Below are positions 1-47,471 of a DNA stretch of 64,000 nt, one piece after another. Source of the stretch: an uncultured Thermoleophilia bacterium (GTDB taxonomy: Bacteria > Actinomycetota > Thermoleophilia > UBA2241); contig CAWKEZ010000110.1 of NCBI GenBank assembly GCA_963848545.1, positions 8,979-72,978 on the forward strand, read 5' to 3'. The stretch's first letter is position 1, and every line of letters begins with the position of its first letter. The position numbers were made by a program, and so were the translations under genes. A model generated the notes under the pieces. That model worked only from the letters and a program-made list of their open reading frames with translations. It ran no database searches and had not been told where the DNA came from.

Positions 1-1577
<1,577 letters not shown>

Positions 1578-1660
1578 TCATCGGCCCTCGGAAGAAGGCG
1601 GTTGGATTGGGGGGACTCCATCCCCAGTCATTTCACTTTAAGATGCGCGGATAATTCGCG

Positions 1661-15570: not shown

Positions 15571-16689
<1,119 letters not shown>

Positions 16690-16795
16690 CCGACGCAGTC
16701 GGGTCGGCGTGCGGGGCGCCGCAAGTGCACCGCACGCTGGACTTGGCCGGACCGTTGCGAGGCGGTAGACGGGGAGGCGTGATAGCGTCTCCCCC

Positions 16796-29593: not shown

Positions 29594-29670
29594 GCCCTCG
29601 TAGCTCAGGGGATTAGAGCGCGCGCCTCCGGAGCGCGAGGTCGAAGGTTCGAATCCTTCCGGGGGCACCA
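29594..29670 (+). tRNA. tRNA-Arg (anticodon CCG)
   Basis: Cloverleaf folded by hand: acceptor GCCCTCG/CGGGGGC, D-stem GCTC/GAGC, anticodon stem CGCGC/GCGCG with loop CTCCGGA, T-arm GAAGG-TTCGAAT-CCTTC, discriminator A + CCA. Confidence 0.85.
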
Positions 29671-29674
29671 TTAG

Positions 29675-29884
29675 CCTCAGATTCGCCGCTGGTTTGCGGA
29701 GCTGACCGGCACGTGGATCAAACGAGGCACCCACCGCTGTGTCCGAGAGCTCGTGCGATCGATCCGCACCTGGATCAGCAACTGGAACGACGACCCCAAG
29801 CCGTTCGTCTGGCACAAGACGGCCGACGAGATCTTCGACAGCCTCGCCGCCTACTGCCAGCGGATCAACGACTCAGGACACTAG
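29675..29884 (+). mobile_element. remnant of IS630-family transposase (C-terminal ~65 aa only), 5 nt downstream of tRNA-Arg
   Basis: RWFAELTGTWIKRGTHRCVRELVRSIRTWISNWNDDPKPFVWHKTADEIFDSLAAYCQRINDSGH* matches conserved IS630 transposase C-terminus. Confidence 0.6.
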
Positions 29885-30030
29885 CCTACAGCCAGCAGTC
29901 CTTCTGGCTTCGACCTCAGCGGACATTGCTGGCACGGATTGTAGTTCGTTGTTGGACGCGCTACCTTTGCTGAACCGGCAGCCGCGAGGTGGTGCTGGGG
30001 GTTCAGGCCGACGGAGGAGTGCCGTCCCTG

Positions 30031-31590
30031 ATGAGTGATGCCAGCTCGGGCTCGAAGGTGGAGGGACGCCGCCTGCCAGGGGTGATGCGGCGCATCGTCT
30101 GGTTGCGTCTTCACCGCAACCGAGTGTTGGGCCTCACGTTCCTCGGCATCGCCACCGCGTTCTGCCTTGACCTCGTCATTCCCGGCTACGCGATTGCCGG
30201 GTTCTACCTCTTCCCACTCATGCTCGTGGCCCTCGCGCTCCACGAGCGATTCATTGTGGCAGTAACCGGGATCCTCTGCCTGAGCCTGGCTATCTTCACG
30301 ATGGTGCTCCAGGGACGCGCTAACGGCCAGAACATCCTGCTCCTTGGCTTCGGCACGGTGGCGGGGCTCGGTCTGGTTGCGCTGGGCTACCTGTACGACC
30401 GTTTCGACCAGCTCTACGTGACCGAACGGTTCACGACGGCCAGGCTGCAATCCCTTACCGCGCAGTTGCAGAGGCTTCAGGAGGCGTCCGTGCTCGACTC
30501 AGACCGGCCGCTCTCGGACCTGCTCGATCACATCGTCCAGCAGGCGCGGCAGCTCATGGAAAGCGACAGCGGCGTGCTCTTCCGACACGATGCTGGCGAC
30601 GATCTGCTGAAACCGGAGGCTACGGTCGGCGTTTCACGCGACGCCGTCGAGGCGATGTCATGGCCGACCGGCATGGATCCGGCCGGTGAGGCGGCGTCGC
30701 AGCGTCGGCCGGTGGCGTCGACTGATCTCAAGGTCTCTTGGGGCGACGGCGACGATCGCCCAGTCGCCGCGCCCATCGACTGGACGCGGGACTTCGCGGC
30801 GTGCATCGCTGTGCCGCTCATGGTCGGAACAGATCTTTTCGGCGTGATCGCCCTCTACTATCGTGTGCCCAGGCAGTTCAGCAAACAGGACATGAGCCTC
30901 GCGCAGTCGTTCAGCGACCAGGCGGCGCTGGCGATCGCGAACGCCAGGCTGCGCGAACAGATGGAGAGCAGCATCGCGGCCGCTGAGCGCCTGCGGTTGG
31001 CGCGCGATCTCCACGACTCGGTCACACAGTCGTTGTTCGCGGCCAGTCTCCAGGCAGAGGCGCTGAGTCGCAAGTGGCGGCCGCCTTCCCTAGAAGCGCA
31101 GAGAAGTCTTGACGACATGCGTCGCCTCACCCGCGGTGCTCTCGCCGAGATGCGCGCCATGCTTCTGGAGATGCGTCCGGCCGCGCTGGCGCAGTCGCCG
31201 CTGGACGCCTTGCTCCGGCAATTGGTCGACGCGACCGGGGCGCGGACGCACATACCCGTGAAGCTCTCCCTCGCTGATTCGCCGCCACTGTCGCCCGATG
31301 TGACGATTGCGCTCTACCGAATCGCCCAAGAAGCTATGAACAACGTGGTACGCCATTCCAAGGCCAGCCACGCCTGGGTGACATTGGGCTGCTCGGACGG
31401 GGTCGTGAAGCTGACCGTGGGCGACGATGGGAGCGGGTTTGACTCGTCGCCAGTCGGGCCGGAACGGTTCGGTCTGCGGATCATGAGGGAACGGGCCGAG
31501 GCGGTGGCCGCGACTCTGAGCATTACGAGCACGAGGCACCGCGGTACGGTTGTCACGGCCGAATGGTCCGTCACCGGGATGCAAGGTTGA
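30031..31590 (+). CDS. GAF-domain sensor histidine kinase, NarL-partner type (HisKA_3)
   Basis: TM-rich N-term, GAF, H-box RLARDLHDSVTQSLF, HATPase; ATG 30031 after GGAGGAG. Confidence 0.8.
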   Translation: MSDASSGSKVEGRRLPGVMRRIVWLRLHRNRVLGLTFLGIATAFCLDLVIPGYAIAGFYLFPLMLVALALHERFIVAVTGILCLSLAIFTMVLQGRANGQNILLLGFGTVAGLGLVALGYLYDRFDQLYVTERFTTARLQSLTAQLQRLQEASVLDSDRPLSDLLDHIVQQARQLMESDSGVLFRHDAGDDLLKPEATVGVSRDAVEAMSWPTGMDPAGEAASQRRPVASTDLKVSWGDGDDRPVAAPIDWTRDFAACIAVPLMVGTDLFGVIALYYRVPRQFSKQDMSLAQSFSDQAALAIANARLREQMESSIAAAERLRLARDLHDSVTQSLFAASLQAEALSRKWRPPSLEAQRSLDDMRRLTRGALAEMRAMLLEMRPAALAQSPLDALLRQLVDATGARTHIPVKLSLADSPPLSPDVTIALYRIAQEAMNNVVRHSKASHAWVTLGCSDGVVKLTVGDDGSGFDSSPVGPERFGLRIMRERAEAVAATLSITSTRHRGTVVTAEWSVTGMQG

Positions 31591-31592
31591 CC

Positions 31593-31973
31593 ATGCAGCT
31601 CGAGGCACCAACCAACCGGATCAGGGTCGTCATCGTTGACGATCATGCTCTAGTGCGCACGGGCCTGGAAACGATACTGCTGCTCTTCGATGACATTGAA
31701 CTCGTTGCGCAAGCGGATAGTGGCGCGGAGGCCATCAGATTGTGTGAAGAGGCCCAGCCAGACGTGGTTCTGATGGACTTGGTGATGCCTGGCATGGACG
31801 GCGTCGTCGCGACCAGAGAGATACTACGGCTGTGCCCAACTACCAGAGTCCTAGTGCTGACCAGCTTCTCGGAAGAGGCGCTGATTGAGAGCGCCCTGAA
31901 CGCGGGAGCTATCGGCTATCTCATGAAGAACATCTCTGGCGATCAACTGGCGGCGGCCATCAGAGCAGGCTAG
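31593..31973 (+). CDS. NarL/LuxR-family response regulator, receiver part (ends at in-linker TAG caused by apparent 1-nt indel ~31970)
   Basis: RVVIVDDHALVRTGL...DVVLMDLVMPGMDG...VLVLTSF; HTH continues in frame -1 from ~31965. Confidence 0.8.
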   Translation: MQLEAPTNRIRVVIVDDHALVRTGLETILLLFDDIELVAQADSGAEAIRLCEEAQPDVVLMDLVMPGMDGVVATREILRLCPTTRVLVLTSFSEEALIESALNAGAIGYLMKNISGDQLAAAIRAG

Positions 31974-31989
31974 CCTGGGCAAGTCTACA

Positions 31990-32628
31990 TTGGCTCCCGA
32001 AGTCGCCGACGTGCTCATCCACCGAGTTGCAAAGCCCGGACACCTGGGCGACGACCTCACCACACGTGAGCGCCAGGTCCTATCCTTGCTGGCGGACGGT
32101 CTCACCAACGCGGAGATCGCAGAGCGCCTCGCGGTCAGTCTCTCCACTGTCAAGAGCCACGTCAGCAGCATCATCATCAAGCTCGGCGCGGCCAGCCGCA
32201 CCGACGCGGCCGTCATCGCTGAGCGGCATCGTCTCATGCGGACCAGGCCTATCCCGCGTGAAACGCAGGCTGCCCACCTGTCGTCCCTCATCCGCAGCCC
32301 GCCCGTGTTCGTGGACCCGGACTCCTCTATCAAGGACGCGGTCAGAGTGATGAAAGAGGAGCTCGTGCGTGCGGTCCTCGTGCTCACGCCCGTCGGGCTG
32401 GGCATTGTCACTGAGGGCGATCTGCGGGACCGGGCGCTCGTCGCCGGCCTGCCGCTGGACACCCCAGTGAGTGCCATCATGACTTCGCCGGTCAAGACCA
32501 TGCGGGGCGACCGGCTGGCGGCGGAGGCGGCGATCGAGATGTTGAACGCCCGCATTAACCACCTGCCGGTGGTGGACGCCCGCGGCCAGGTCCTGGATCG
32601 TCTCGTCTTTCAGCCTGATGAGGCTTGA
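31990..32628 (+). CDS. LuxR-type HTH (continuation of the response regulator) read in-frame into a CBS-domain pair
   Basis: TTRERQVLSLLADGLTNAEIAERLAVSLSTVKSHVSSIIIKLGA (LuxR HTH) then two CBS motifs (...PVFVDPDSSIKDAVRVM...VLTPVGLGIVTEGDL; ...TPVSAIMTSPVKTM...INHLPVVDARGQVL); no stop or canonical start between HTH and CBS. Confidence 0.6.
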   Translation: MAPEVADVLIHRVAKPGHLGDDLTTRERQVLSLLADGLTNAEIAERLAVSLSTVKSHVSSIIIKLGAASRTDAAVIAERHRLMRTRPIPRETQAAHLSSLIRSPPVFVDPDSSIKDAVRVMKEELVRAVLVLTPVGLGIVTEGDLRDRALVAGLPLDTPVSAIMTSPVKTMRGDRLAAEAAIEMLNARINHLPVVDARGQVLDRLVFQPDEA

Positions 32629-33650
32629 CGCGCTCAGCCCGTGACGCGCTCGCATGGTCGATCTCGGAGGCCGGAACCGTCACGGAGGTCGTCACGCTCG
32701 CGCAACGTGTGCCCGAGGTGTTTCTGACGCTCCTGGACGCCAATCTGGAGGCACACGACATCTCGCGTGTCATCACGGTGCAGAACGACACTGTCGTCAC
32801 CCGGCTGCTGCAACTCGCCATGGAGCGTCACGGTCCGCCGCCGGTGCGCTTCGCCTGGCTCGCGTTGGGCAGCGTCGCCCGCTGGGAGACGACGCTCGCG
32901 TCGGACCAGGACAACGCTCTCGCGTACGCGGACACCGACGACCCGGACGTGGACTCGTACTTCGAGAAGGTGGCGATTGAGGTGAACGACGGGCTGGCGC
33001 ACTGCGGCTACGCTCTCGACGCCTCGGATGTGCTCGCACGCAATAGGCTCTGGCGCAAGCCCGTCTCCCAGTGGACGGCCGTGTTCACCGACTGCCTGGA
33101 ACATCCCGACCGCTCGAACCTCGTGAGGGCGGCCCTCACGTTCGATTTCCGTCAAGTGACCGGCGAGCTCGACATCGTGCGGCCGCTGGTGGAGGTCTTG
33201 CGGCAGGCTCCGGAACGCCCCGGCTTTCTCGCGCGCCTGGCGCGCACGGTCACCGATGTACGCTCACCACTGGGCTTTCGCCAGCGCCTCATCGGCCCGG
33301 TGGACCTGAAGAAGAGCGCAGCGTTGCCCCTCGAGAACCTGGCGCGCTTCTACGCGCTGTCGAACCGCGTGACGGTGCCGGGCACCCTGGATCGCCTCGC
33401 CGCCATCGAGAGCCTCGGGGTCCTGACCGGTGAGACCGCGAAGGCGCTGCAGGAGGCGTTCGATCGATCGATCTCGAACGTGCGCCTGCTCGAGCACCAC
33501 GCGGCCGCTATTGCCGAGGGGCGCACGCCGGACAACGTCGTGGACACCGACCGTCTGCCGCCCCTGGCCCGGCTGGATCTGCAGGCCGCCCTGCGCGCTG
33601 TGGCCGCCGCCCAGCGAGCGATGTCCCACTACGTGCCGCTAGGCATGTAG
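32625..33650 (+). CDS. DUF294-type putative nucleotidyltransferase with substrate-binding C-domain (TTG start overlapping upstream TGA)
   Basis: ...VRFAWLALGSVARWETTLASDQDNALAY... (DUF294 NTase motif), DUF294_C-like tail. Confidence 0.65.
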   Translation: MTRSARDALAWSISEAGTVTEVVTLAQRVPEVFLTLLDANLEAHDISRVITVQNDTVVTRLLQLAMERHGPPPVRFAWLALGSVARWETTLASDQDNALAYADTDDPDVDSYFEKVAIEVNDGLAHCGYALDASDVLARNRLWRKPVSQWTAVFTDCLEHPDRSNLVRAALTFDFRQVTGELDIVRPLVEVLRQAPERPGFLARLARTVTDVRSPLGFRQRLIGPVDLKKSAALPLENLARFYALSNRVTVPGTLDRLAAIESLGVLTGETAKALQEAFDRSISNVRLLEHHAAAIAEGRTPDNVVDTDRLPPLARLDLQAALRAVAAAQRAMSHYVPLGM

Positions 33651-33838
33651 CCCCAGCCGGCGGCACGCCCCCGAGCCGCCACGCATCAGCGAAGAGAGGT
33701 GACGCCGTGATCGTCAAGACGTTTGTGATCCAGTTGCTTGCTGGCGCGGGCCGTGCCACTATGCAAGGCGGCCCGTTTGCGGGCGCGCTCGCCGTTGGCG
33801 GTACTGCTCTAAACCGGGGGCTCGCCACACGGAGGACA

Positions 33839-33955
33839 CGTGAGGCTTGAGGATCTGCTCGGACCCCGCGTGCGCTACAAGGGCGAGGAGGGGCGCGTCG
33901 TGCAGGGGCATGCCGACGATGGCAAGGCCGCGGTGACGGTGACCTCCGTGCAATG
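33839..33955 (+). CDS. small hypothetical protein (38 aa)
   Basis: GTG start 4 nt after GGAGGA; stop overlaps next ORF start (ATGA). Confidence 0.3.
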
Positions 33956-34280
33956 AGTGGCGCGCCACGTCGCGTCGTGACCGTGCCCGAGTCTGAGTGG
34001 AAGGAGCTGGAGCTTATTGACTGGGAAAGACGCCGCAAAGGCCGTCCCCATGCTTCGACTCCAGGGAACCTGATTAGCGAGCACTCGCGCCTGCCGGTGA
34101 TCATGCCGGCTCGCGACGTGAAGCACCTGACCGCGAACTTCCCAGACGCCCTTGGCGCACGTTCTTGCCGGCCTCGGCGTCGAGGCCACCGCAATAGAAC
34201 GCGAGGTCGAGGCCACGCGCCAGGCCGTGATTGCGAAGACCGACAACCGCTCCCTGCTCGGTACCCTGCGGCTGGCGTAG
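33953..34280 (+). CDS. small hypothetical protein, possibly frameshifted (~34170)
   Basis: ORF MSGAPRRVVTVPESEWKELELIDWERRRKG...; an alternative frame from ~34170 gives coding-like ...LAGLGVEATAIEREVEATRQAVIAKTDNRSLLGTLRLA*. Confidence 0.25.
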
Positions 34281-34341
34281 GGCGGAAGGAGGTGGCGCTG
34301 AAGACGTGTCGGTTGGTCGCAGCTTGCCTGCGTGCTGTCAC

Positions 34342-34641
34342 TCAGGATCCGACTGACTCCTGAATCTCGGCGACCGTCTCCTCGCTCGGCAGACCGCTCG
34401 ACAGGGTCACGACCATGACGGTTGGTCCGAACGACCTCGCCGCGTCGAACGCCGCCCGCACCGCGGCGAAGACCGATTCCTCGTCTCCTGGGGCGAAGGT
34501 GCTGAGGCGGCCCACGCTTGCGTCCACGCCCGCCTTGGCGGCAGCCCTGCACGGCGGCCTCGATCGCCGGGTGAAGGTGCTCCTGGCGTAGCGGATAGAC
34601 CGAGAACTGCAGACCGACCCCGCTCTTGCCTGCTGATTCCT
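34342..34641 (-). CDS. YkoF/MTH1187-family (thiamine-binding-like) small protein, 1-nt frameshift ~34520
   Basis: MSAQESAGKSGVGLQFSVYPLRQEHLHPAIEAAVQ | AAAKAGVDASVGRLSTFAPGDEESVFAAVRAAFDAARSFGPTVMVVTLSS... Confidence 0.5.
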   Translation of the reverse strand, partial: RNQQARAGSVCSSRSIRYARSTFTRRSRPPCRAAAKAGVDASVGRLSTFAPGDEESVFAAVRAAFDAARSFGPTVMVVTLSSGLPSEETVAEIQESVGS

Positions 34642-34827
34642 GGGCGCTCATCGGTCGATGCGCTTGATGGTCACCGTGATCGTCTGCGGATCCTCAAGGC
34701 GATGGGCGGCCCGCTTCTGCAGGTAGAGGGTGCCGATCACCAGGGGCTGGTCTGACTCGGGCTCCTCGTAGCGCACTGTGTTCTTGGTCTCTCTGGCCCT
34801 GTTCGAGGTCACCTTGAGCGGTTCCAT
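34638..34827 (-). CDS. small hypothetical protein (62 aa), stop overlaps ykoF-like start (ATGA)
   Basis: MEPLKVTSNRARETKNTVRYEEPESDQPLVIGTLYLQKRAAHRLEDPQTITVTIKRIDR*. Confidence 0.3.
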
Positions 34828-35042
34828 CGTTTCTCACTTTCGAGATGTAACGGGAAGCGGCCTACCACCGGTCATCGCCGGCGCCGACTCTCGAAGCCAT
34901 GGTGGGATCGTTACGGCGCACGGCGCGGCGCTAGGTACCGATACGGGTCAAGCATCGATCGTCAGGCGGTCAGACGGCGACCATGCTGGCGAGGCTGCGG
35001 AACAGCAGCTTCTTCGCTCGCGCCTTCGGGGGCAAGGGCTAG

Positions 35043-36397
35043 CAGGCTGCTGAAGAAGCGGCCTTGGAGTTGCACCGATGCCGGGCGGAGCCGCAGTGAG
35101 CCGGCAACGGGCTGAGCTGAGCGCGTTTCGGGCTCGCAGGAAGGGCCCGTGGGGCCCGTTCCCGGCCCCTTGCCTTACGCCGGAGACGGCTCCGCCAGCA
35201 GCGTTCGCAGGCGTACCAGGTTGTAGGCGGCGCAGGCGAAGGTGAAGACTGCGGCCGCCTTGGCCTTGCCGCGGTGGCGCAGCTTGCGCAGGCCGCCGAC
35301 CGTCTTGATCCAGCCGAAGGGTTCTTCGACCAGTTTGCGGCGGCGCTGGCTGACCGCGTAGCCGTCGTGACGCGTCGTGCGGCGGTCGACCGCGCTGAAG
35401 CGGTCCTTGGCGGCGACGTGCGGGGTGATCTTCAGGGCGCGCACGCCGGCGACGAAGTCCTTCGTGTCGTAGCCGCGATCGGCGCCGACGCTCATGCGCC
35501 CGCGCCTGCGGCGCCGCTGGCGTCGAAGCAGCCGCAGGCCGGCCTCGCGCTCGGCGGTGCCGGAGGCCTCGGTCAGCTCGCAGTCGACGATGAGGCCGTT
35601 GCGGTTCTCGGTCAGGCTGTGGCCGGCGTAGCAGAGCTTGGCCGCCTGGCTGTCGCCCTTGCGCGCGAGACGGGCCTCGGGGTCCGTGGTCGAGCGGTGG
35701 CTGGCGTTGCCGCGCCGCTCGCCGCGCCAGTCGACCTCGGGGTTGCGGCCGCCGCCGTGCGGCGCCGGCGGCTCCTCGTCGTCCCCCTGCTCGATCGGCC
35801 GCAGGCTCTTCAGCGAGGCGGCCGCCTCGATGAGCGTGCCGTCGAGGGAGAAGTGCTCGCGGCTGAGCAGCTTGTGCGCCTCGGCCTGAGCGCGGATCGC
35901 TTCGAAGAAGGCCTCGGCGACCTCGGCGGTGAGCAGGCGGTCACGGTTCTTGGTGAAGGTGGTCGGATGCCAGACCGGCTCGTCCAAGGGCAGGCCGACG
36001 AACCAGCGCAGGAGCAGGTTGTAGCGGAGCTGCTCGCAGAGCCGGCGCTCGGAGGGTATGGCGTAGAGGATCTGGATGAGCTGGGCGCGCAGCAGGTACT
36101 CGGGGGCGACCGAGGGGCGGCCGCGCTCGGCGTAGAGCGCGTCGAGACTGGGCCTCATCTCCTCGAGGGCGACGTCGACCAGCGCGCGGATGCCACGCAG
36201 CGGATGGTCGTCCGGTACGACGTCCTCGAGCGTAGTCAGCACGATGAACCCCGCCTGCAGCTCCTCGTCCCCGCGCACTGCGCCACCTCCCCGTCGCCTG
36301 CCTGTAACGCGCACAGTAGCAGCTTCGAGGCGACACGCGAGACCACCTCCGCGAGGCTCTCGCAGAGCTTGAAGCGGGGCTATTTTCAGCAGCCTGC
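35043..36397. mobile_element. IS5-family insertion sequence (~1.35 kb) with ~17-bp terminal inverted repeats and 4-bp CTAG target-site duplication
   Basis: Left end CAGGCTGCTGAA... (35043) and right end ...TTCAGCAGCCTG (36397) are reverse complements; CTAG at 35039-35042 and 36398-36401. Confidence 0.75.
35175..36279 (-). CDS. IS5-family DDE transposase
   Basis: GTG start with GGAGGTGG RBS; LTTLEDVVPDDHPLRGIRALVD...LYAERGRPSVAPEYLLRAQLIQILYAIPSERRLCEQLRYNLLLRWFVGL... and DDE core. Confidence 0.8.
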
Positions 36398-36522
36398 TAG
36401 CGCCGCACTGGCGCGTCTCCCCGACGCCTTTAAAGCGTCGCCCGCCGCTCCACACCCTCAGGCCCGTCGCGGCCGCTGCTTTCAACCTCCGTGGTGGAGC
36501 GCCCAGGCGAGTGTCGCGCGGG

Positions 36523-37270
36523 CTACCTCGGGCGAGCGCCGAGCCGCGGTGGCCGCCCTCGCGCAGGGTGATGAAGCGCGTTGGGCTCGGCCAGCACGGC
36601 CGCCAGACGGAGGCTGTGGGCGAAAGGCACGTCCTCGTCGTCGCGGGCGTGCACCAGCAGCACGCGCGGCATCCCTCGCGCGATCTCGACCAGATCGAGG
36701 CGGCGCAGGAACGGTCGCAGCACGGCGCGGCGAAGCGGGGCCGTACTCGCCACTCGCCGCGGGCGTCGGCCCACCACTCCGCGGCTGCGCGGCGCGCCTC
36801 ATAGGCGGCGAGGCCGGTCAGCAGCGACGCCCCGTCGGCCGGGCAGAGCAGAACGAGCGAGCGGAACAGCGCTGGATGAGCGTGAGCGGCGAGCAAGAGG
36901 AAGCAGGCCCCCATGCTCGCTCCACGGGCTGCCAGCCAAGGCACCCCGCTCGGCCCGCAGGAGCAGCCGGCCGGCGGCGACCGCGTCGTGCCAGACGTCT
37001 GGCCCCAGCACACCCTGGCTCTCGCCGTGGCCGCGGAAATCGAAGGTCAACACCGCGAGCCCGGCAGCGGCGGCCTGCTCACCCATCAGGGTGTGGTTCT
37101 CCTTGCGGCTGCCGGCGCCGTAGCGCGCGAGCCATGCTCCGCGTGGCGGACCATCGAGTCGAAAGAGCAGACCGGCCAGCTCAAGACCGTCGCAGGGGAT
37201 CGTGATGCGCGCGGGCGGCCGGGCGTTCTCGGCTCCGGCCGGCCGGGCGTTCTCCGCCTTGCGGGCGCTG
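36523..37270 (-). pseudogene. alpha/beta-hydrolase (dienelactone-hydrolase-like) gene split over three frames
   Basis: N-part ...ITIPCDGLELAGLLF...VLTFDFRGHGESQG, nucleophile elbow GASMGACFLLLAAHAHP, C-part PRVLLVHARDDEDVPFAHS each in a different frame. Confidence 0.5.
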
Positions 37271-37407
37271 CGTCCTGGCTCTCAGGCGCCGTGTTCGGAA
37301 CTCTCATGTACCGAGTTTAGCCCACCGCTGGCGGTGTGATGTACTAGCGGCAAGCGCGCCGCAAGGGGCGGCGTGGCGCCGCCCGAACCTGCAGCAGCGG
37401 AGGTCGC

Positions 37408-38667
37408 ATGCACGAGGTTAATGTCGGCCACAAGAGTTTGGCCGACTACCGCTCCATCGTCCCCAAAGATCTCATGGCCGAGATCGACGAGCTCTCGCGC
37501 GAGCTGCTGCGCGGACGCAAGGTCCTTCACGTTAACGCCACCGCCTTTGGCGGCGGCGTGGCCGAGATTCTCTACGCCCTGGTGCCTCTCGACGAGCGAC
37601 GCCGGCCTGGAGGCGCAGTGGCAGATCATGACGGCGCCGCCGGAGTTCTTCACCGTAACGAAGAGCTTCCACGACGGCCTGCAGGGCCACGCCGGTCAGA
37701 CTTCCCCACGGAGGCGCGCGAGCTCTACGAGAGCGTCTGCCGGGCCAATGCCGCCGAGCTCACGCGGTACTACGACTTCGTCGTCATCCACGACCCCCAG
37801 CCCCTTGCCATCCGGGACTTCGTGACCCTCAGCCAGGACCGCGCCACATGGTGGATCTGGCGCTGCCACATCGACACATCTACGCCCAACCGAGAGCTGT
37901 ACGAGTACCTGCTGCCGTCCCTCAACGGCTACGACGCCGCGGTATACACGTTGCAAGACTATGTGCCCAGCGGTCTCGGCATACCGGTGCGTGCCATCGC
38001 CCCCACCATCGACCCGCTGGCGCCCAAGAACATGAAGCTCTCCAGCGAAGACGCCAGCTACATCGTGCGCCAGTTCGGCATCGACGCAGAGCGGCCGCTG
38101 CTGCTGCAGGTGTCACGCTTCGACCCCTGGAAGGATCCGCTGGGAGTGGTCGACGTGTATCGCTCCGTCAAGGCTGTGCACCCCGACGTGCAGCTCGCCC
38201 TCGTCGGTTCCATGGCGAGCGACGATCCCGAGGGCTGGGAGTACCTCGAGAAGGTCATCGATTACGTGGGCGCCGACCCGGACGTGTTCGTGCTCTCCAA
38301 CATCGACAATGTGGGGTCGGTGGAGATCAACGCCTTTCAGAGCCACGCCGACGTGATCATCCAGAAGTCCACTCGCGAAGGGTTCGGCCTCACCGTGACC
38401 GAGGGGCTCTGGAAGGGCCGCCCCACCATTGGTGGGGCGGTAGGCGGCATCCCCCTGCAGATCGAAGACGGCGTGACCGGGTACCTGGTGAAGTCGGCGG
38501 CGGAGTGCGCGCAACGCTGCCTGCAGGTGCTGGCCGATCCCGAGATGCACCGCCGCATGGCTCTGCAGGGCAAGGAGCACGTGCGTCGCGAGTTTCTTAC
38601 GCCGCGGCTCCTGCGCGACGACTTACGGCTCTTCCGCGACCTGCTCACGGGTAAGATAGGGTCCTAG
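37408..38667 (+). CDS. GT4 glycosyltransferase, TreT (trehalose glycosyltransferring synthase)-like; two compensating frameshifts ~37590 and ~37700
   Basis: KVLHVNATAFGGGVAEILYALVPL then |SDAGLEAQWQIMTAPPEFFTVTKSFHDGLQG in another frame, returns to frame at ...TEARELYES; C-terminal GT4 E-x7-E region. Confidence 0.55.
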   Translation: MHEVNVGHKSLADYRSIVPKDLMAEIDELSRELLRGRKVLHVNATAFGGGVAEILYALVPLDERRRPGGAVADHDGAAGVLHRNEELPRRPAGPRRSDFPTEARELYESVCRANAAELTRYYDFVVIHDPQPLAIRDFVTLSQDRATWWIWRCHIDTSTPNRELYEYLLPSLNGYDAAVYTLQDYVPSGLGIPVRAIAPTIDPLAPKNMKLSSEDASYIVRQFGIDAERPLLLQVSRFDPWKDPLGVVDVYRSVKAVHPDVQLALVGSMASDDPEGWEYLEKVIDYVGADPDVFVLSNIDNVGSVEINAFQSHADVIIQKSTREGFGLTVTEGLWKGRPTIGGAVGGIPLQIEDGVTGYLVKSAAECAQRCLQVLADPEMHRRMALQGKEHVRREFLTPRLLRDDLRLFRDLLTGKIGS

Positions 38668-38734
38668 AGCGAGGGGCCTAGAGCGGCCGGCGCGCACTGC
38701 GCGGGCGGGTCCACGGCAAACAGGGGGCGGGGGC

Positions 38735-40213
38735 GTGGGGCAAAGCAGGCAGACGGCCGACCTTGCGGGACGCCGGCTGGTCGTGGCGGCCAACCGGGGA
38801 CCAGTGCAGTTCCACCTCGACCCTTCCGGCGAGCCCGTGGTAACGCGCGGACCGGGCGGGCTCGTCACGGTGCTCACCGAGGTGCTGCGCAAGCACGCCG
38901 GCACCTGGGTTGCCGCGGCTCAAGGCGACGCCGAGGCCGAGCTTGCTAATCAGGGGCACTCCGTCGAGGTCAAGGTGGGCGGCGATGTGTATCGAGTGCG
39001 CTACGTCGCCGTGGAACCCAAGACGTACTACAAGTACTACAACATCGTGGCCAATCCGATGCTGTGGTTCATCCAGCACTACCTGTGGGACCTTGGCCGG
39101 CACCCCGACATCTCGGCGAATGAGCTCGACGCCTGGTACAACGGCTACGTGCCGGTGAACCGTCTTTTCGCCCAAGCTATCGCGGACGAGGTTGGCGATG
39201 ATGGCCTGGTCATGCTGCACGACTACCAGCTCTACTGTGTCGCGCCCGAGGTAAGGGCCGCCTTGCCACACGTGTTTCTGCACCAGTTTGTGCACATCCC
39301 CTGGCCGCAGAGCGACGCCTGGCTGGTGCTGCCCGAGCGCATCCGCGGGGCCGTCTTCGAGGGTCTGCTGGGCAACGACATCGTCGCCTTTCACACGCGG
39401 CACTACGCGGTGAACTTCCTGCAGTGCTGCAACGACCTCCTCGACCTACCGGTCGACATGCAGCGCCTCACGGTGCAGGTGGGCGCTCGCGAGGTATGGG
39501 TGCGGGCGTACCCTGTCTCCATCGACCCGGCGAGCTTGCGGGCGGCCGCCAAGGCGCAACGGGTGGCGGCCGAGGAGCGGCATCTGCTGGAGCGCCGCCG
39601 CGAGCATCTGCTGCTGCGCGTCGACCGCCTCGACCTGAGCAAGAACATCATCCGGGGGTTCCTCGCTTTCGACCGCTTCCTCGACATGCACCCCGAGTTT
39701 CGCGAGCGCATCACCTTCCTCGCGCTGGTGCAGCCCTCGCGCGAGGACGTGGAGGAGTTCGTGGTCTACCGCGAACGCGTGACGCGCACCGTCGAGCAGA
39801 TCAACACCAAGCACGGCAACACCGACTGGATGCCCATCGACCTGCGCGTGCAGGACAATTTCCCGATGACCCTGTCTGCCTACCGCCACTACGACGCCCT
39901 CCTGGTCAACGCGATCTTCGACGGCATGAACCTGGTCGCCAAGGAGGGGCCTATCCTCAACCAGCGCGACGGGGTGCTCATCCTCTCCGAGAACACAGGG
40001 GCGAGCGAGGAGCTGGGTGCCTTCGCGGTGAGCGTAAACCCGTTCGATATCGATGAGCAGGCCGAGGCTATCTACCGCGCTCTCACCATGCCGGTCGCGG
40101 AGAAGCGCGATCGGCTGCGGCAGCTTCGCGCCGTCGTCGCCCGCAACAGCATCGAGAAGTGGGTGCACGCGCAGTTCGCCGACATCGCGCTGAAACTCGC
40201 TGCGCAGGGGTGA
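38735..40213 (+). CDS. otsA: alpha,alpha-trehalose-phosphate synthase (GT20)
   Basis: LVVAANRGPV..., LVMLHDYQLYCVAPEVR, FVHIPWPQSD, ...GMNLVAKEG. Confidence 0.85.
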   Translation: MGQSRQTADLAGRRLVVAANRGPVQFHLDPSGEPVVTRGPGGLVTVLTEVLRKHAGTWVAAAQGDAEAELANQGHSVEVKVGGDVYRVRYVAVEPKTYYKYYNIVANPMLWFIQHYLWDLGRHPDISANELDAWYNGYVPVNRLFAQAIADEVGDDGLVMLHDYQLYCVAPEVRAALPHVFLHQFVHIPWPQSDAWLVLPERIRGAVFEGLLGNDIVAFHTRHYAVNFLQCCNDLLDLPVDMQRLTVQVGAREVWVRAYPVSIDPASLRAAAKAQRVAAEERHLLERRREHLLLRVDRLDLSKNIIRGFLAFDRFLDMHPEFRERITFLALVQPSREDVEEFVVYRERVTRTVEQINTKHGNTDWMPIDLRVQDNFPMTLSAYRHYDALLVNAIFDGMNLVAKEGPILNQRDGVLILSENTGASEELGAFAVSVNPFDIDEQAEAIYRALTMPVAEKRDRLRQLRAVVARNSIEKWVHAQFADIALKLAAQG

Positions 40214-40244
40214 TGCGCAAGGCCGGTCGCCGAACGCCGGTTGC

Positions 40245-41327
40245 TCAGCGGTCGCCGCCGTCGGCCCGGGCGCAGCGCTGGGCGGCGAGGGCTACGTACT
40301 CTGCGGCCACATCGATGCCGATCGACCTGCGGCCCAACTCCCGGGCCACCAGCATGGCGGTGCCGGTACCGCAGAACGGGTCGAGCACCACGCCGCCGGC
40401 CGGGCAGGTAGCCAGTATGGGCAGACGGCAGAGGTCGGCGGGGAAGGGTGCGTAATGGGCCTCGCGTCGCTGCGTATCTTCGGGCAGGATGTCCCACACG
40501 TCGCCGGGCTTGCTACCGCGCGGATGGTAGCGCAGGAAGTAGAAGCCGTGCCGCTGCAACTCGCGGGCGCGGCCCGAGACCGCGGCGGAATCCGAGTGGG
40601 TGGTCCGCTGGCTGCCGCGGATGACCATGCGAAAGTCGCTCAAGCGGCCCGCGGCGAGCTCGCCGAGCGTCTCGTCGAGGGCGGCCAGGGCGGACGTCTT
40701 CTCGGCGGCCGTCAGCGCCGTGGAGAGCTCGATCTGGCGGCGGTACCGCACGCCGTGCACGCCCGTGGCCGAGATCACGGCGCCGTTCTCTACACGCGCC
40801 GCCCGCGGCGCGTGACGCACGGCATCGGCGTCGTAGAAGTAGTCCCTGGGCTGCCGGACGAAGTGAAACAGCAGCTCATGAACATTGCGCAGCCTGTCGC
40901 GACTGCCATCGGGTCCGCCTTTCACCTTGTGCCAGACGACGCTGTTGCGCAGCGTCCAGCCCTGCTCGTCGCAGAGGTGGAAGGCCACGCGCCAGGGGAT
41001 GCCCAGCTGGCGCTTGCCGCGGTAGGTGTCGCCCAGGTTGAGCCAGAGCGAGCCCTCCGGTTTGAGCACTCGGAGCAGTTCGGCGGCGATGGCGCCGAGG
41101 CCCGCCACGTATTCCTGCCAGCGGCCCTCGGCGCCGATCCCGCCGGCGGCGTAGCGCCGGTGGCCGTAGTAGGGCGGACTGGTGATGCAGCAGTCTATCG
41201 ACGCCGCGGGGAAGAGGCGGAGGGTATGCGCGGCGTCGCCGCACAAGAACAGGGGTCGCGGGTGGAGCCGCGGGTCGTGACTCGCAAGGTACCTCGTGAG
41301 GCGGGCCGCGACCCGCGGCTCGCTCAC
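40245..41327 (-). CDS. DNA methyltransferase, beta-class (SPPY motif IV before FxGxG motif I): N4-cytosine or N6-adenine
   Basis: ...DCCITSPPYYGHRRY... and ...VVLDPFCGTGTAMLVARELGRRSIGIDV; GTG start overlaps GT4 stop (GTGA). Confidence 0.7.
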   Translation of the reverse strand: MSEPRVAARLTRYLASHDPRLHPRPLFLCGDAAHTLRLFPAASIDCCITSPPYYGHRRYAAGGIGAEGRWQEYVAGLGAIAAELLRVLKPEGSLWLNLGDTYRGKRQLGIPWRVAFHLCDEQGWTLRNSVVWHKVKGGPDGSRDRLRNVHELLFHFVRQPRDYFYDADAVRHAPRAARVENGAVISATGVHGVRYRRQIELSTALTAAEKTSALAALDETLGELAAGRLSDFRMVIRGSQRTTHSDSAAVSGRARELQRHGFYFLRYHPRGSKPGDVWDILPEDTQRREAHYAPFPADLCRLPILATCPAGGVVLDPFCGTGTAMLVARELGRRSIGIDVAAEYVALAAQRCARADGGDR

Positions 41328-42373
41328 CCCGCGCGCACCCGCTCCGCGAGCACCCGCCGGTAGATGGCCTCGTAGTCGCTCACCATGCGGTCGACCGTGA
41401 AGCGCTCCTCCACGGTGTGGCGGCACACCGCCGGGTCGATCTCGCCGAGCCGGCCGACGGCGGCCACGAGGTCGTCGAAGGTATCGCAGATGAATCCCGT
41501 TTTGCCGTGGTCGATCACCTCGGGCACCGAGCCCTGGCGCAGCGCCACCACCGGCGTGCCCGTGGCCAAGGCCTCGATCATCACGAGGCCGAACGGCTCC
41601 GGCCAGGTGATGGGAAACAGGAACGCCTTGGCGTGCGCGAACAGCTCGCGCTTGCGGGCGTCGTCGACCTCGCCCTCGTACACGATCTGGTCGCCGTCGA
41701 TGAGCGGCTCCACCTTCTCCTCGAAGTACTCGCGGTAGGGCTCCTGGAGCACGCCGGCCATAATGAGCCGCTGGCCGGTACGCTTGGCCGCGGCGATTGA
41801 GAGGTGGAAACCCTTGGCCTCGCAGACTCGTCCGAAGGCCAGCAGGTAGTCGTCCTTGCTGGGCGTGTAAGGCCACTGCTCCACGGCGATGGCGTTGTAG
41901 GCGAGGCCGGCCCAGTTCATGCCCGACGGCGCCATGGACTGCTGGTATCGGCTGATACCGATGTAGGCCACCTCGTCCTTGAACTGCTTGTAGAAGCCGT
42001 AGGCGGCGGTGTCGAAGGCGCAGTGCACGGTGTGCACCATGGGCGTCCCCAGATAGCGGCTGAAGGCGATGCCAAGAAAGCCCGAGTGATCGTGCACGAG
42101 GTCGAAGCGGTCGTGCTCGATGCCGGCGAAGGCGAACGACACGTGGCAGGCGTCGTAGCTCGTCTGGCCCATCACCTCGGGCATCTGCGTGGGGTAGAGG
42201 GAGCGCAGCTCGGCGGCGGTGCGCGCGTCTCCGGTGGCGTACAGCACCACCTCGTGACCGTGCGCCGTGAGCCCGTCGCACAACTGCTGCACCACCCACT
42301 CGGTGCCGCCGTAGCCGGCGGGCGGCACGGTGATCCAGGGCGGGGCTATCTGGGCGATGCGCATGCCTCGCAT
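41324..42373 (-). CDS. GT4 (group 1) glycosyltransferase
   Basis: MRIAQIAPPWITVPPAGYGGTE... and C-terminal EPFGLVMIEALATGTPVVA. Confidence 0.8.
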   Translation of the reverse strand: MRGMRIAQIAPPWITVPPAGYGGTEWVVQQLCDGLTAHGHEVVLYATGDARTAAELRSLYPTQMPEVMGQTSYDACHVSFAFAGIEHDRFDLVHDHSGFLGIAFSRYLGTPMVHTVHCAFDTAAYGFYKQFKDEVAYIGISRYQQSMAPSGMNWAGLAYNAIAVEQWPYTPSKDDYLLAFGRVCEAKGFHLSIAAAKRTGQRLIMAGVLQEPYREYFEEKVEPLIDGDQIVYEGEVDDARKRELFAHAKAFLFPITWPEPFGLVMIEALATGTPVVALRQGSVPEVIDHGKTGFICDTFDDLVAAVGRLGEIDPAVCRHTVEERFTVDRMVSDYEAIYRRVLAERVRAG

Positions 42374-42482
42374 TGTACAAGACCAGCGACGGCCTCATGC
42401 GACGGCATGGGCGACCGGGACGGGCGAGGCCGCGCCTGCATTTGGCTGTCCAAGCCGACCCGGAGTGGGTAGAGTGGCGTCG

Positions 42483-43772
42483 ATGATCCTTTACCTCGAT
42501 TGCTCGAGCGGCATCAGCGGTGACATGCTCGTGGCCGCGCTGCTCGCGCTCTGCGGAGCGCGGGCGGAAGACCCGGGGCCTCTTGACGACGTGGTGCGCC
42601 CCGCCCTGGCGGCGGCCGGCATCGACCCCCGCCTCGGGTCTCTCGAGGAGGTCCGCCGCGGCGGCCTCGCGGCGCTCTCGTTCAGGGTGGCCGACGGCGT
42701 GGGTTTCGCGACCTTCGACGAGCTCATCATGTCTCTGTACGCGTCGGACCTGGATCAGCCCGTCGCCGACGCCGTGGCCTCCGTGGCGGAGCGCATGGCG
42801 GCCGCCGAGGCCGAGGTGCACGGCCGCGACGCGGAACACCTGCACGAGCTGAGCGGCGTCGACACGGCGGTCGACCTCATCGCGGCGGCGGCCCTGCTGC
42901 AGCGCCTGGCCCCCGAGCGCATCGTCGCGTCACCACCGGCCATGGGCAACGGCACCGTCGATACCGCGCACGGACGCCTGAGCGTGCCGGCGCCGGCCGT
43001 GCTGAGCCTGCTGGCCGGTCTGCCTACTCTGGGCGGCGCGGAGGCGCACGACGACAAGCCGTTGGGCGAGCTCACCACGCCCACCGGCGCGGCCCTGCTG
43101 GCCCATTACGCGGAGAGCTTCGGCGCCCTGCCGGCCGGCCGTATCGAGCTCACCGGGTATGGGGCCGGCCAGCGCGAGGTGCCGGGCCAGCCCAACGTGC
43201 TGCGCGCCGTGCTCGTCGACCCTCGCGGTGTTTCCGCCACTGAGGCGACGGGCGCGGGCGACGACGCTGCCGCCGGCCACGGCCTCGGCGACCACCTGCT
43301 GCTCGAGACCAACATCGACGACATGAGCCCCGAGATGCTGGCCCTGGCCGCCGATACTCTGCGCGCCGCCGGCGCCGTGGACGTGTGGGTCAGCGAGGCG
43401 CTCATGAAGAAGGGTCGCCCCGGCAGCGTGCTGCACGTGCTCTGCACGGTCGCCGACCGACCGCTTCTGGCCGATCTGATCTTCGCTGAGACCTCCACCT
43501 TCGGCCTGCGCGTGCTGTCGGTCGGCCGCCTGTACGCTGAGGAGCGGCGCGAGACCGTTACTATCGGCAGCCACGAGATCGGCGTGCGTCTGGGCTACGC
43601 CGGCGGACGGTTGGTCACCGTCTCGCCGGAGTTCGAGGACGTGCGGCAGGTGGCGATCGCCGTCGGCCGGCCGGCCAAGGTGGTGTACGAGGCCGCCCAA
43701 GCCGGGGCCCGCGCGCGCTTCAGCCGCGCCCCTCGCGTGCACAATGAAGCTAGTCGGCCTGAAGCCGACTAG
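42483..43772 (+). CDS. larC: LarC-family nickel insertion protein (DUF111)
   Basis: MILYLDCSSGISGDMLVAAL... LarC N-terminal signature; C-terminal region conserved; no larA/B/E adjacent. Confidence 0.7.
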   Translation: MILYLDCSSGISGDMLVAALLALCGARAEDPGPLDDVVRPALAAAGIDPRLGSLEEVRRGGLAALSFRVADGVGFATFDELIMSLYASDLDQPVADAVASVAERMAAAEAEVHGRDAEHLHELSGVDTAVDLIAAAALLQRLAPERIVASPPAMGNGTVDTAHGRLSVPAPAVLSLLAGLPTLGGAEAHDDKPLGELTTPTGAALLAHYAESFGALPAGRIELTGYGAGQREVPGQPNVLRAVLVDPRGVSATEATGAGDDAAAGHGLGDHLLLETNIDDMSPEMLALAADTLRAAGAVDVWVSEALMKKGRPGSVLHVLCTVADRPLLADLIFAETSTFGLRVLSVGRLYAEERRETVTIGSHEIGVRLGYAGGRLVTVSPEFEDVRQVAIAVGRPAKVVYEAAQAGARARFSRAPRVHNEASRPEAD

Positions 43773-44067
43773 CAGATGCGGTCCGCCTGCGGCGACCGCA
43801 CGGGGGGTTGCCTCGCTTGCGCGCAGCCAGCGGGCCACCCCGACTAATCCCCCCACTGCAGGGTCGGAACAGGCGCGGCGGCCGCAAGGCCCTCCGCGTG
43901 TGCTCGGCGGCCTTGGGCCGATGAGCTTCGAACCCACTCTTGACGAAATTGACCCTCTCGATTACGCGTATGTAGAATGCGGCACAAGGGGCTGCCCGGC
44001 GCCTGCCGCGGCGGCCCCGCCTGACCCCTGCGAGACGCGCGGAATAGTGGATACAAAGGAGGACGCG

Positions 44068-46611: not shown

Positions 46612-47471
46612 ATGGCAGCTCAGATCATCGACGGCAAGGCTATCGCCGAGCAGATCCGTGAAGAGATCAAGGCCGAGGTCGCGAAGCTCGCGACGTGCGG
46701 TGTAAAGCCGGGAGTAGCCACCATCCTGGTGGGTGAGGACGGCGGCGCGCAGTTCTACCGCGGCCAGATCGAGAAGAACACCGCCACCGTGGGCTTCAAT
46801 TACTACAACAACATCCTGCCGGCCGGAGCCAGCGAGGCGGAGGTGTTGGCCCTCATCGACAAGCTCAACGCCGACCTCCACGTGCACGGCATCCTGGCGC
46901 TCATGCCCATGGCCGGCGAGATCGACCAGAACAAGGTCTTCAACGCCATCGCGCCGGTGAAAGACCTCGACTGCGTGAACCCGGCCAACATCGGCCACGT
47001 GCTGCTCGGCGACCAGCTCTTCGCGCCGGCGACGCCGTCGGCCTGCATGGAGATCTTCGACCGCGAGGGCATCGAGCTGCAGGGCCTGGATGTGACGATC
47101 GTCAACCACTTCGAACATCGTCGGCAAGCCGGTGGCGCTGCTCTGCCTCAACCGTAATGCCTCGGTGCACGTGGTCCACGTGTTCAGCCAAGACGTGCCC
47201 GCCGCCTGCCGCGAGGCCGACGTCGTCATCAGCGCGGCGCCGGTGCGTAACCTCATCAAGAAGAACATGGTCAAGCCTGGCGCCGTGGTGGTAGACGTCA
47301 CCACGATGCGCGGCGACGACGGCAAGCAGGTGGGCAGCCTGGAGTGGGAGGGCGTACTCGAAGGTGGCCGGCAGCGCCACGCCGGTGCCCGGAGGCGTGG
47401 GGCCCGTGACCAACGTCATCCTGCTCAAGAACGCTCTGGTGGCCTGCAAGACGCAGAGTGGCGTGAGCTGA
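46612..47471 (+). CDS. folD: bifunctional methylene-THF dehydrogenase/methenyl-THF cyclohydrolase FolD, at least two frameshifts (~47115, ~47340)
   Basis: MAAQIIDGKAIAEQIREEIK...ILVGEDGGAQFY...; NAD(P) Rossmann part in ORF 47132..47539 frame; true C-terminus GPVTNVILLKNALVACKTQSGVS* in third frame. Confidence 0.8.

Follow-up and report, generated by a model that had tools for sequence, protein, structure and literature searches.

Two-part structure of the interval downstream of tRNA-Arg(CCG) in an uncultured Thermoleophilia genome: conserved chromosome and an IS-scarred mosaic at a probable rearrangement breakpoint

The tRNA-Arg(CCG) gene of an uncultured Thermoleophilia bacterium (contig CAWKEZ010000110.1) is followed by a series of genes and insertion sequences (IS) which a preliminary description had taken for a single accessory island of about 14 kb (29,594-43,800), horizontally assembled at the tRNA. 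We analyzed the whole 64-kb stretch that contains it, hereafter termed the window, and compared it with related genomes. The interpretation as a tRNA-anchored island is partly supported. A variable, IS-scarred segment of 6.8 kb (29,671-36,467) does follow the tRNA, while the remaining 7.3 kb of the proposed island is collinear with the corresponding locus of a relative, L161 (ERZ25039477). Judging from shared gene order and identity, 36,468-43,800 and the sequence onward is vertically inherited chromosome of the Thermoleophilia lineage, and this part comprises more than half of the proposed island. With a probability of about 0.7, we favor a two-part interval, in which this inherited right part is joined to a degenerate left mosaic, the latter marking a breakpoint of rearrangement that is specific to the lineage and next to a tRNA used as an integration hotspot.

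The conserved block from the hydrolase to LarC

Homology between the right part and its relatives starts at 36468. From there to 43726, the alignment with L161 is one unbroken 7.3-kb match at 86.0% nucleotide identity, followed by 88.9% across FTHFS-FolD, which contradicts the view that this segment is not core genome. Five relatives (L161, L162, and L166-L168) share the order SPOUT methyltransferase-ArgRS-PenR-(M42)-M55-(DtxR-FeoB)-(M78)-hydrolase-TreT-OtsA. Within the 10 kb of flank seen per relative, two of them (L161 and L162) have enough sequence to be followed further, and both continue with the DNA methyltransferase (MTase), GT4, LarC, FTHFS, FchA, and FolD, the L161 locus reaching on into NuoE-NuoF. 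In the window, FTHFS-FchA-FolD-NuoEF likewise follow at the 3' side of LarC. The right boundary that had been drawn at ~43.8 kb is thereby lost, since L161 and L162 run unbroken from LarC into the FTHFS block. A more distant sixth locus, L081, presents OtsA-GT4-LarC-FTHFS-FchA devoid of the MTase (L081 ~1100-1191); it was the single close locus returned by a metagenome scan with FTHFS, the remaining 79 matches being distant and of Firmicutes type. The presence of the MTase in L161 and L162 and its absence from L081 mark an older, lineage-level gain or loss of this gene, rather than its arrival as part of a recent island.

The window has a GC content of ~67%, at which spurious open reading frames (ORFs) abound, and genes were therefore called from the frame bias of GC at third codon positions (GC3) and named with Pfam and NCBIfam. 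The genes and elements enumerated in the preliminary description (the tRNA, the IS630 remnant, the kinase, the NarL regulator, CBS-DUF294, IS5, the hydrolase, TreT, OtsA, the MTase/GT4 pair, and LarC) were all confirmed, positions included. The conserved block opens with an alpha/beta-hydrolase pseudogene (~36482-37220, minus strand), for which tblastn reports 50-59% identity to the L161 and L162 hydrolases. DNA alignment with these orthologues reveals at least four frame-breaking indels and a 49-nt insertion; since these are far more indels than in the neighbouring genes, it is probably a real pseudogene. Pfam and NCBIfam analysis then identifies a TreT-type trehalose synthase (37408-38667, plus strand) and OtsA (38735-40213, plus strand), which share 86% and 90% of their amino acids, respectively, with the L161 proteins. 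More than 100 TreT homologues were retrieved at 63-86% identity, and their available source names point to Thermoleophilia/Actinomycetota. Pfam assigns the two following ORFs to an N6/N4 DNA MTase (40245-41327, minus strand) and a GT4 glycosyltransferase (41324-42373, minus strand). As the preliminary description had noticed, the MTase starts on the stop codon of the GT4 gene, its GTG start overlapping the GT4 TGA as GTGA, and the pair occurs with the identical 4-nt overlap in L161 and L162, with amino acid identities of 84% and 90%. The block closes with LarC (42483-43772, plus strand; 87% amino acid identity to L161), a protein of nickel-pincer cofactor biosynthesis that returns both the LarC1 and LarC2 models by Pfam and NCBIfam.

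The genes that precede the hydrolase in the relatives, the ArgRS-M55-tRNA-Gly block, are absent from the whole window. In L161 (7680-7755) and L162 (5573-5648), the hydrolase-TreT block is preceded at a distance of 0.8-3.5 kb by a tRNA-Gly(CCC) gene, and the content that comes after this gene varies, with M78 and with or without DtxR-FeoB. This tRNA and the variable content next to it indicate that the right block also borders a tRNA-linked variable zone. Further downstream in the window, the essential gene FolD (46612-47468, plus strand) is split over three reading frames as compared with its L161 orthologue, with indels around 47110 and 47350-47360, by either indel errors of the assembly or real decay. 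Because of these frame splits, other frameshifts in the window are less confidently called pseudogenes.

The tRNA-Arg(CCG) locus as an integration hotspot

The tRNA-Arg(CCG) gene (29594-29670, plus strand; ARAGORN and Rfam tRNA model) ends a conserved left block in the order FtsX-CtpA-RNase R-SmpB-pterin dehydratase-tRNA-Arg(CCG). Homologues of the window SmpB were found at ~40 loci in uncultured Thermoleophilia (Actinomycetota) genomes, with 82-97% identity, and the order of the block is kept in all ~40 relatives scanned, with the tRNA at an identical position in every one of them. Over this block, the window is 85.7-86.1% identical at the nucleotide level to L001 (CAVVTV01). Synteny with all ~40 related genomes stops exactly at the tRNA. 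In 13 relatives, the tRNA is followed by EamA, a zinc-ribbon protein, MurI, (RNase PH), RdgB, CDF, Nramp, and MgtE; five others carry a different block, and the content is unique to each of the rest, including the closest, L001 (86% nucleotide identity) and L002. None of the window genes of 29.7-56.5 kb occurs within the ~9.5 kb downstream of the tRNA in the ~40 relatives, except for paralogues at 40-55% identity in L002. Conversely, the EamA-MurI block was sought across all 64 kb of the window and not found. Contigs of several relatives break at or just after the tRNA-Arg gene.

tRNA-Arg(CCG) is a recurrent integration hotspot in this lineage. In L009 (1421-8193), blastn reports a 44-nt repeat of the tRNA 3' end 6.7 kb downstream, which encloses a 6.7-kb insert and has the ancestral EamA gene immediately on its far side. 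In L002 (10939-19618), a 31-nt repeat of the tRNA 3' end lies 8.6 kb downstream (blastn), and the 8.6-kb insert bounded by these attachment (att) repeats has a NarL-type regulator and a GAF kinase among its genes. In L037 (10879-11338), a tyrosine integrase gene ends 70 nt from the tRNA (Phage_integrase, PF00589, E=1.5e-16). A different feature is found directly 3' of the tRNA in 15 relatives (L001, L002, L006, L008, L011-L013, L015, L017, L022, L025, L028, L030, L034, and L036), namely a conserved element of ~90 nt with a 6-bp hairpin (CGTTGT/ACAACG) and a box CCGGTCGC-CTAC-CCGGTCGC, beyond which the loci diverge completely. A structured RNA was considered for this element and rejected, as no covariation was found; it may combine a terminator with a recombination site, or represent the end that a family of elements has in common. 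The element was not found in the window.

In the window, foreign-looking sequence begins 1-20 nt after position 29670, directly 3' of the tRNA. The 19-nt flank that follows the tRNA (29671-29689, plus strand) shares 16 of its 19 bases with the L037 flank that precedes the tyrosine integrase gene, the blastn match to L037 reaching 29689, and is possibly, on this resemblance, the last trace of an integrative element. The search for a direct repeat that should mark the distal end of the island was negative: when up to 1-2 mismatches are allowed, no fragment of the tRNA 3' end of at least 14 nt is repeated in the 64 kb more than chance would give, the surroundings of ~43.8 kb included. The approach is sound, since the same blastn search found the 44-nt and 31-nt repeats of L009 and L002. 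Neither an integrase nor a remnant of one was detected by Pfam analysis of the called genes, by six-frame Pfam analysis of 33.64-35.06 kb, or by tblastn with the L037 integrase (best E=0.14). The tRNA setting of the proposed island stands in that synteny ends at the tRNA, mobile debris follows, and the site is a hotspot in relatives; the att repeat and the integrase are what the window does not provide. No relative offers an empty site either: 36.5-43.8 kb is collinear in relatives, and 29.7-36.5 kb is absent at the ~40 tRNA loci, where its two flanks are never adjacent. The three checks proposed along with the island (a repeat of the tRNA 3' end, compositional skew, and absence from relatives) all go against it as it was drawn, the right part being present in relatives.

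The composition of the interval does not set it apart. The skew in codon usage or GC3 that the island claim had anticipated is lacking over 29.7-43.8 kb, where neither GC3, nor the codon-usage fit, nor the tetranucleotide distance deviates. The tetranucleotide distance is 11.8-16.7 for 4-kb windows starting at 28-38 kb, and 19.7 and 17.4 for the two reaching 43.8 kb, as compared with 10.6-30 over the full 64 kb. The mean codon fit of 29.7-36.4 kb is 0.27 versus 0.37 +/- 0.13 for the core, while GC3 amounts to 0.84-0.94 and the codon fit to 0.31-0.54 from TreT to LarC. The lowest GC (0.56-0.62) is encountered in the first ~3 kb of the window, and the largest tetranucleotide distance in the first 4 kb; a fluoride riboswitch is located in the same region (1565-1634, minus strand; Rfam RF01734, 51.4 bits versus a gathering score of 34).

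These results bear on the reading of the whole 29,594-43,800 segment as a horizontally assembled island integrated at tRNA-Arg(CCG). Such an island would account for the location beside a tRNA where relatives have an integration hotspot, for the IS debris and the MTase, for the functional heterogeneity of the genes, and for the fact that none of them follows tRNA-Arg in relatives. We nevertheless regard it as extremely improbable, considering the 86% collinearity of 36468-43726 with L161 and the gene order that L161 and L162 share with it up to and into the FTHFS block, the lack of an att repeat, an integrase, or a compositional skew, and the ancestral post-tRNA neighbours, which were searched for in the window past 43.8 kb and do not resume there.

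The mosaic between the tRNA and the conserved block

From left to right, the 29,671-36,467 segment comprises the ~19-nt flank resembling L037, the 3' fifth of an IS630 transposase gene, a kinase/regulator-DUF294 cassette, frameshifted gene fragments, and an intact IS5 element. The IS630-family transposase remnant (29675-29883, plus strand) is a frame of 67-69 codons that holds the last ~67 codons and the stop of the gene, the 5' four-fifths being missing. Tblastn reports 67% identity over 67 residues to the last 67 of the 363 residues of annotated IS630-family transposases carried by plasmids, and the fragment is 79% identical at the nucleotide level to an IS630-type gene in L170; its 69-residue translation returns no Pfam or NCBIfam match. 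The remnant had been placed 5 nt after the tRNA. Its existence and a frame open from 29675 are verified, and the homology may begin only at 29681-29690, because positions 29671-29689 also match the L037 post-tRNA flank. Its right end could not be defined by comparison with other copies, the homology ending at the stop codon. The fragment is thus not a complete IS630 element, which would exhibit a full DDE_3 transposase, terminal repeats, and a TA duplication.

Downstream of the remnant, a sensor histidine kinase with GAF, HisKA_3, and HATPase_c domains by Pfam analysis (29989-31590, plus strand) is ~77% identical at the nucleotide level to the kinase of a canonical chromosomal locus in L163 and L164. 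It is followed by a gene (31593-33650, plus strand) for which Pfam and frame analysis indicate a REC-GerE-CBS-CBS-DUF294-DUF294_C fusion: the receiver domain covers 31593-31973, the GerE helix-turn-helix starts at ~32050, and no stop intervenes before the CBS pair and the DUF294 and DUF294_C domains. The gene is broken in the window by three indels as compared with a copy in L163 (+1 at 31966, -2 at 32596, and +1 at 32643). The canonical locus of L163 and L164 encodes, in order, the kinase, a REC+GerE regulator, an amino-acid permease (AA_permease), Usp, a cNMP-CBS-DUF294 protein, and UPF0060. The window cassette is ~77% identical to it at the nucleotide level (76-77% over the CBS pair, DUF294, and DUF294_C) and is devoid of the ~3 kb that extend from the 3' end of the regulator gene to the CBS pair, so that AA_permease, Usp, and the cNMP-binding domain are lost. 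At its right end, the cassette reaches 35 nt into UPF0060, leaving a 5' stub (33707-33741, plus strand) identified by blastn to L163 and L164, whose homology stops at 33741. Only blastn comparisons were used here, as tblastx of 29.5-37.5 kb against four loci returned high-GC noise.

L163 keeps the canonical chromosomal locus and also harbours a second copy of the cassette, 91.9% identical at the nucleotide level to that of the window, with an intact REC-GerE-CBS-DUF294 protein of 683 residues (15578-17629, minus strand). If the fusion protein is functional, it would represent an unusual response regulator with a DUF294 nucleotidyltransferase output domain. This second copy starts ~20 nt after a tRNA-Phe(GAA) gene, at which an att repeat was sought and not found. 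A mobile module consisting of the kinase and the fusion gene, landing just 3' of tRNA genes with no integrase of its own, seems to us very unlikely.

The cluster of small overlapping ORFs at 33.7-35.0 kb consists mostly of gene fragments. Beyond the UPF0060 stub, it includes a frameshifted DUF6933-like fragment (33953-34280, plus strand; PF22016, E=1.7e-10 once the frames are joined, as compared with E=4.8e-4 when the six raw frames are scanned), a frameshifted YkoF-like gene (34342-34651, minus strand; PF07615, E=8.6e-9 on the joined sequence), and, upstream of the latter, an ORF of 59 residues from the ORF list that matches no family (34648-34827, minus strand). The YkoF-like gene and this ORF (34342-34827) did not return any nucleotide match in the fetched loci.

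The IS5-family element that closes the mosaic is intact, as had been described. It spans 1354 bp (35043-36396, minus strand; 35039-36400 including a CTAG on each side) and has the termini CAGGCTGCTGAA/TTCAGCAGCCTG, which form terminal inverted repeats of 12 bp, or a perfect inverted repeat of 17 bp when CTAG is counted. Its single transposase (35175-36278, minus strand; 367 residues) scores 259.3 bits with NCBIfam NF033581, well above the cut-off of 140, and comprises the Pfam domains DUF772 and DDE_Tnp_1; more than 100 homologues of 365-368 residues were found. Four other copies (L169-L172) have identical termini and CTAG flanks within unrelated surrounding DNA, so that the assignment to the IS5 family is founded both on the transposase and on repeats, flanking duplication, and ends shared by independent copies. 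Copies in related assemblies are 85-88% identical at the nucleotide level with the same ends, and the family is multi-copy there, many copies being stand-alone contigs of ~1.35 kb. In one related assembly, IS5 copies of this family adjoin IS630-type (DDE_3) transposase genes (L170, 1207-2804; L171, 5655-6719), and three identical IS5 transposase genes lie on three of its contigs. No second copy was found within the window. The element lies ~80 bp beyond the stop codon of the hydrolase, and its left side borders on sequence other than the M78 gene of relatives. CTAG is either a fixed target or a part of the terminus. A CTAG duplication as proof of simple IS5 insertion was rejected, given that all copies examined carry CTAG; for the same reason, the matching CTAGs are no evidence that the sequences on either side were formerly contiguous. 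A composite transposon was rejected as well, the bracketing elements, an IS630 fragment and an IS5, being of different families. Within 29,671-36,467, nothing but the IS5 element looks currently mobile.

Origin of the junction and comparison with known systems

In no relative do the two flanks of the 6.8-kb mosaic adjoin each other, and both consist of core sequence that has diverged to the same degree, which a simple insertion fails to explain. We infer that the locus is most economically read as a rearrangement junction at a tRNA hotspot. An integrative element would formerly have occupied the tRNA-Arg(CCG) site, as such elements still do in relatives, and the IS630 and IS5 copies would then have accumulated there. 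A deletion or recombination associated with these IS may have cost the site its integrase, the att repeat at the far end, and the neighbours it had originally, so that the tRNA block became joined to the block from TreT to FTHFS; in relatives, the latter adjoins ArgRS-M55-tRNA-Gly. The cassette derives from the canonical chromosomal locus by the internal deletion of ~3 kb, its right end being cut inside the next gene. Several points weigh against this reading. The flank available per relative does not bring the reciprocal junctions of such a rearrangement into view, the closest relatives are only ~86% identical, so that several events may be compounded, and a stretch of only 19 nt links the window to an L037-type element. 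The CTAG present at every IS5 copy neither proves nor excludes a role of IS5 in the rearrangement. With FolD split over three frames, part of the apparent decay may be assembly error, and the contig, being assembled from a metagenome, may have been wrongly joined at an IS or contain indels from an erroneous consensus.

The last point can be pushed further, to an assembly artefact in which the contig is chimeric at a repeated IS (IS5 or IS630) and the tRNA and TreT blocks are not truly adjacent. The many stand-alone ~1.35-kb contigs of the multi-copy IS5 family, the contig breaks of several relatives at or just after tRNA-Arg, the uninformative CTAG flanks, and an imperfect consensus, as suggested by the FolD frameshifts, are all compatible with it. 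However, the IS630 piece is a truncated fragment rather than a repeat that an assembler would bridge, and the identity to relatives is similar on both sides, which indicates that the tRNA and TreT blocks probably belong to one population. We consider an artefact distinctly unlikely.

A smaller decayed island would instead make 29,671-36,467 one integrase-mediated insertion with the cassette as cargo, the integrase and the right attachment site (attR) being lost later and the non-adjacent flanks resulting from unrelated rearrangements. It overlaps the rearrangement reading, from which it differs only in the order of events. The 16 of 19 matching nucleotides at the integrase-side flank of L037 are in line with it, as are the regulator and kinase found in the att-bounded insert of L002 at the same tRNA, and the 92%-identical cassette ~20 nt after tRNA-Phe in L163. 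Set against these are the lack of any att repeat or integrase remnant, the native composition, the unrelated fragments that interrupt the segment, and the cassette itself, which keeps a flank of its chromosomal locus, in the form of the UPF0060 stub, and arose from that locus by deletion. Such an island is unlikely, and a rearrangement junction remains the reading that we prefer.

The main value of this analysis is corrective. Gene heterogeneity beside a tRNA, read from sequence alone, overstated the extent of the island more than two-fold, and the conserved trehalose/MTase/GT4/LarC block had been mislabelled as foreign. For this uncultured Thermoleophilia lineage, tRNA-Arg(CCG) is documented as a recurrent integration site, a 1354-bp IS5 with CTAG flanks is defined, and a REC-GerE-CBS-DUF294 fusion is recorded, none of which should come as a surprise to specialists.

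IS debris and a synteny breakpoint coincide here with a tRNA hotspot, which is a common picture of ordinary genome plasticity. Compared with tRNA-integrated islands with a tyrosine integrase (Islander-type class), the window segment is alike in lying directly 3' of a tRNA with accessory signalling genes and IS debris, and the full signature exists at the same tRNA in relatives, with the repeats of L009 and L002 and the integrase of L037. In contrast to such islands, it has no integrase, distal repeat, or compositional signal, its flanks are non-contiguous in relatives, and over half of the proposed interval is core synteny. It resembles IS-associated rearrangement or deletion scars in that a short mosaic, with the truncated IS630 at one end and the intact IS5 at the other, connects two conserved stretches of synteny and contains truncated and frameshifted genes; it departs from them in that the two IS belong to different families and the reciprocal junctions are unseen, so that inversion, translocation, and deletion are not distinguished here. 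Nothing material sets the IS5 element apart from other members of its family (NF033581 type), of which it has the usual make-up, with 1354 bp, 12-bp terminal inverted repeats, a single DDE transposase of 367 residues, and flanking CTAGs. Finally, the CBS pair, DUF294, and DUF294_C of the window align at 76-77% nucleotide identity with canonical genes for cNMP-binding/CBS/DUF294 signalling proteins, from which the fusion differs by a complete NarL-type regulator (REC+GerE) that replaces the cNMP-binding domain via the ~3-kb deletion, in a gene that is intact in L163 and frameshifted in the window.

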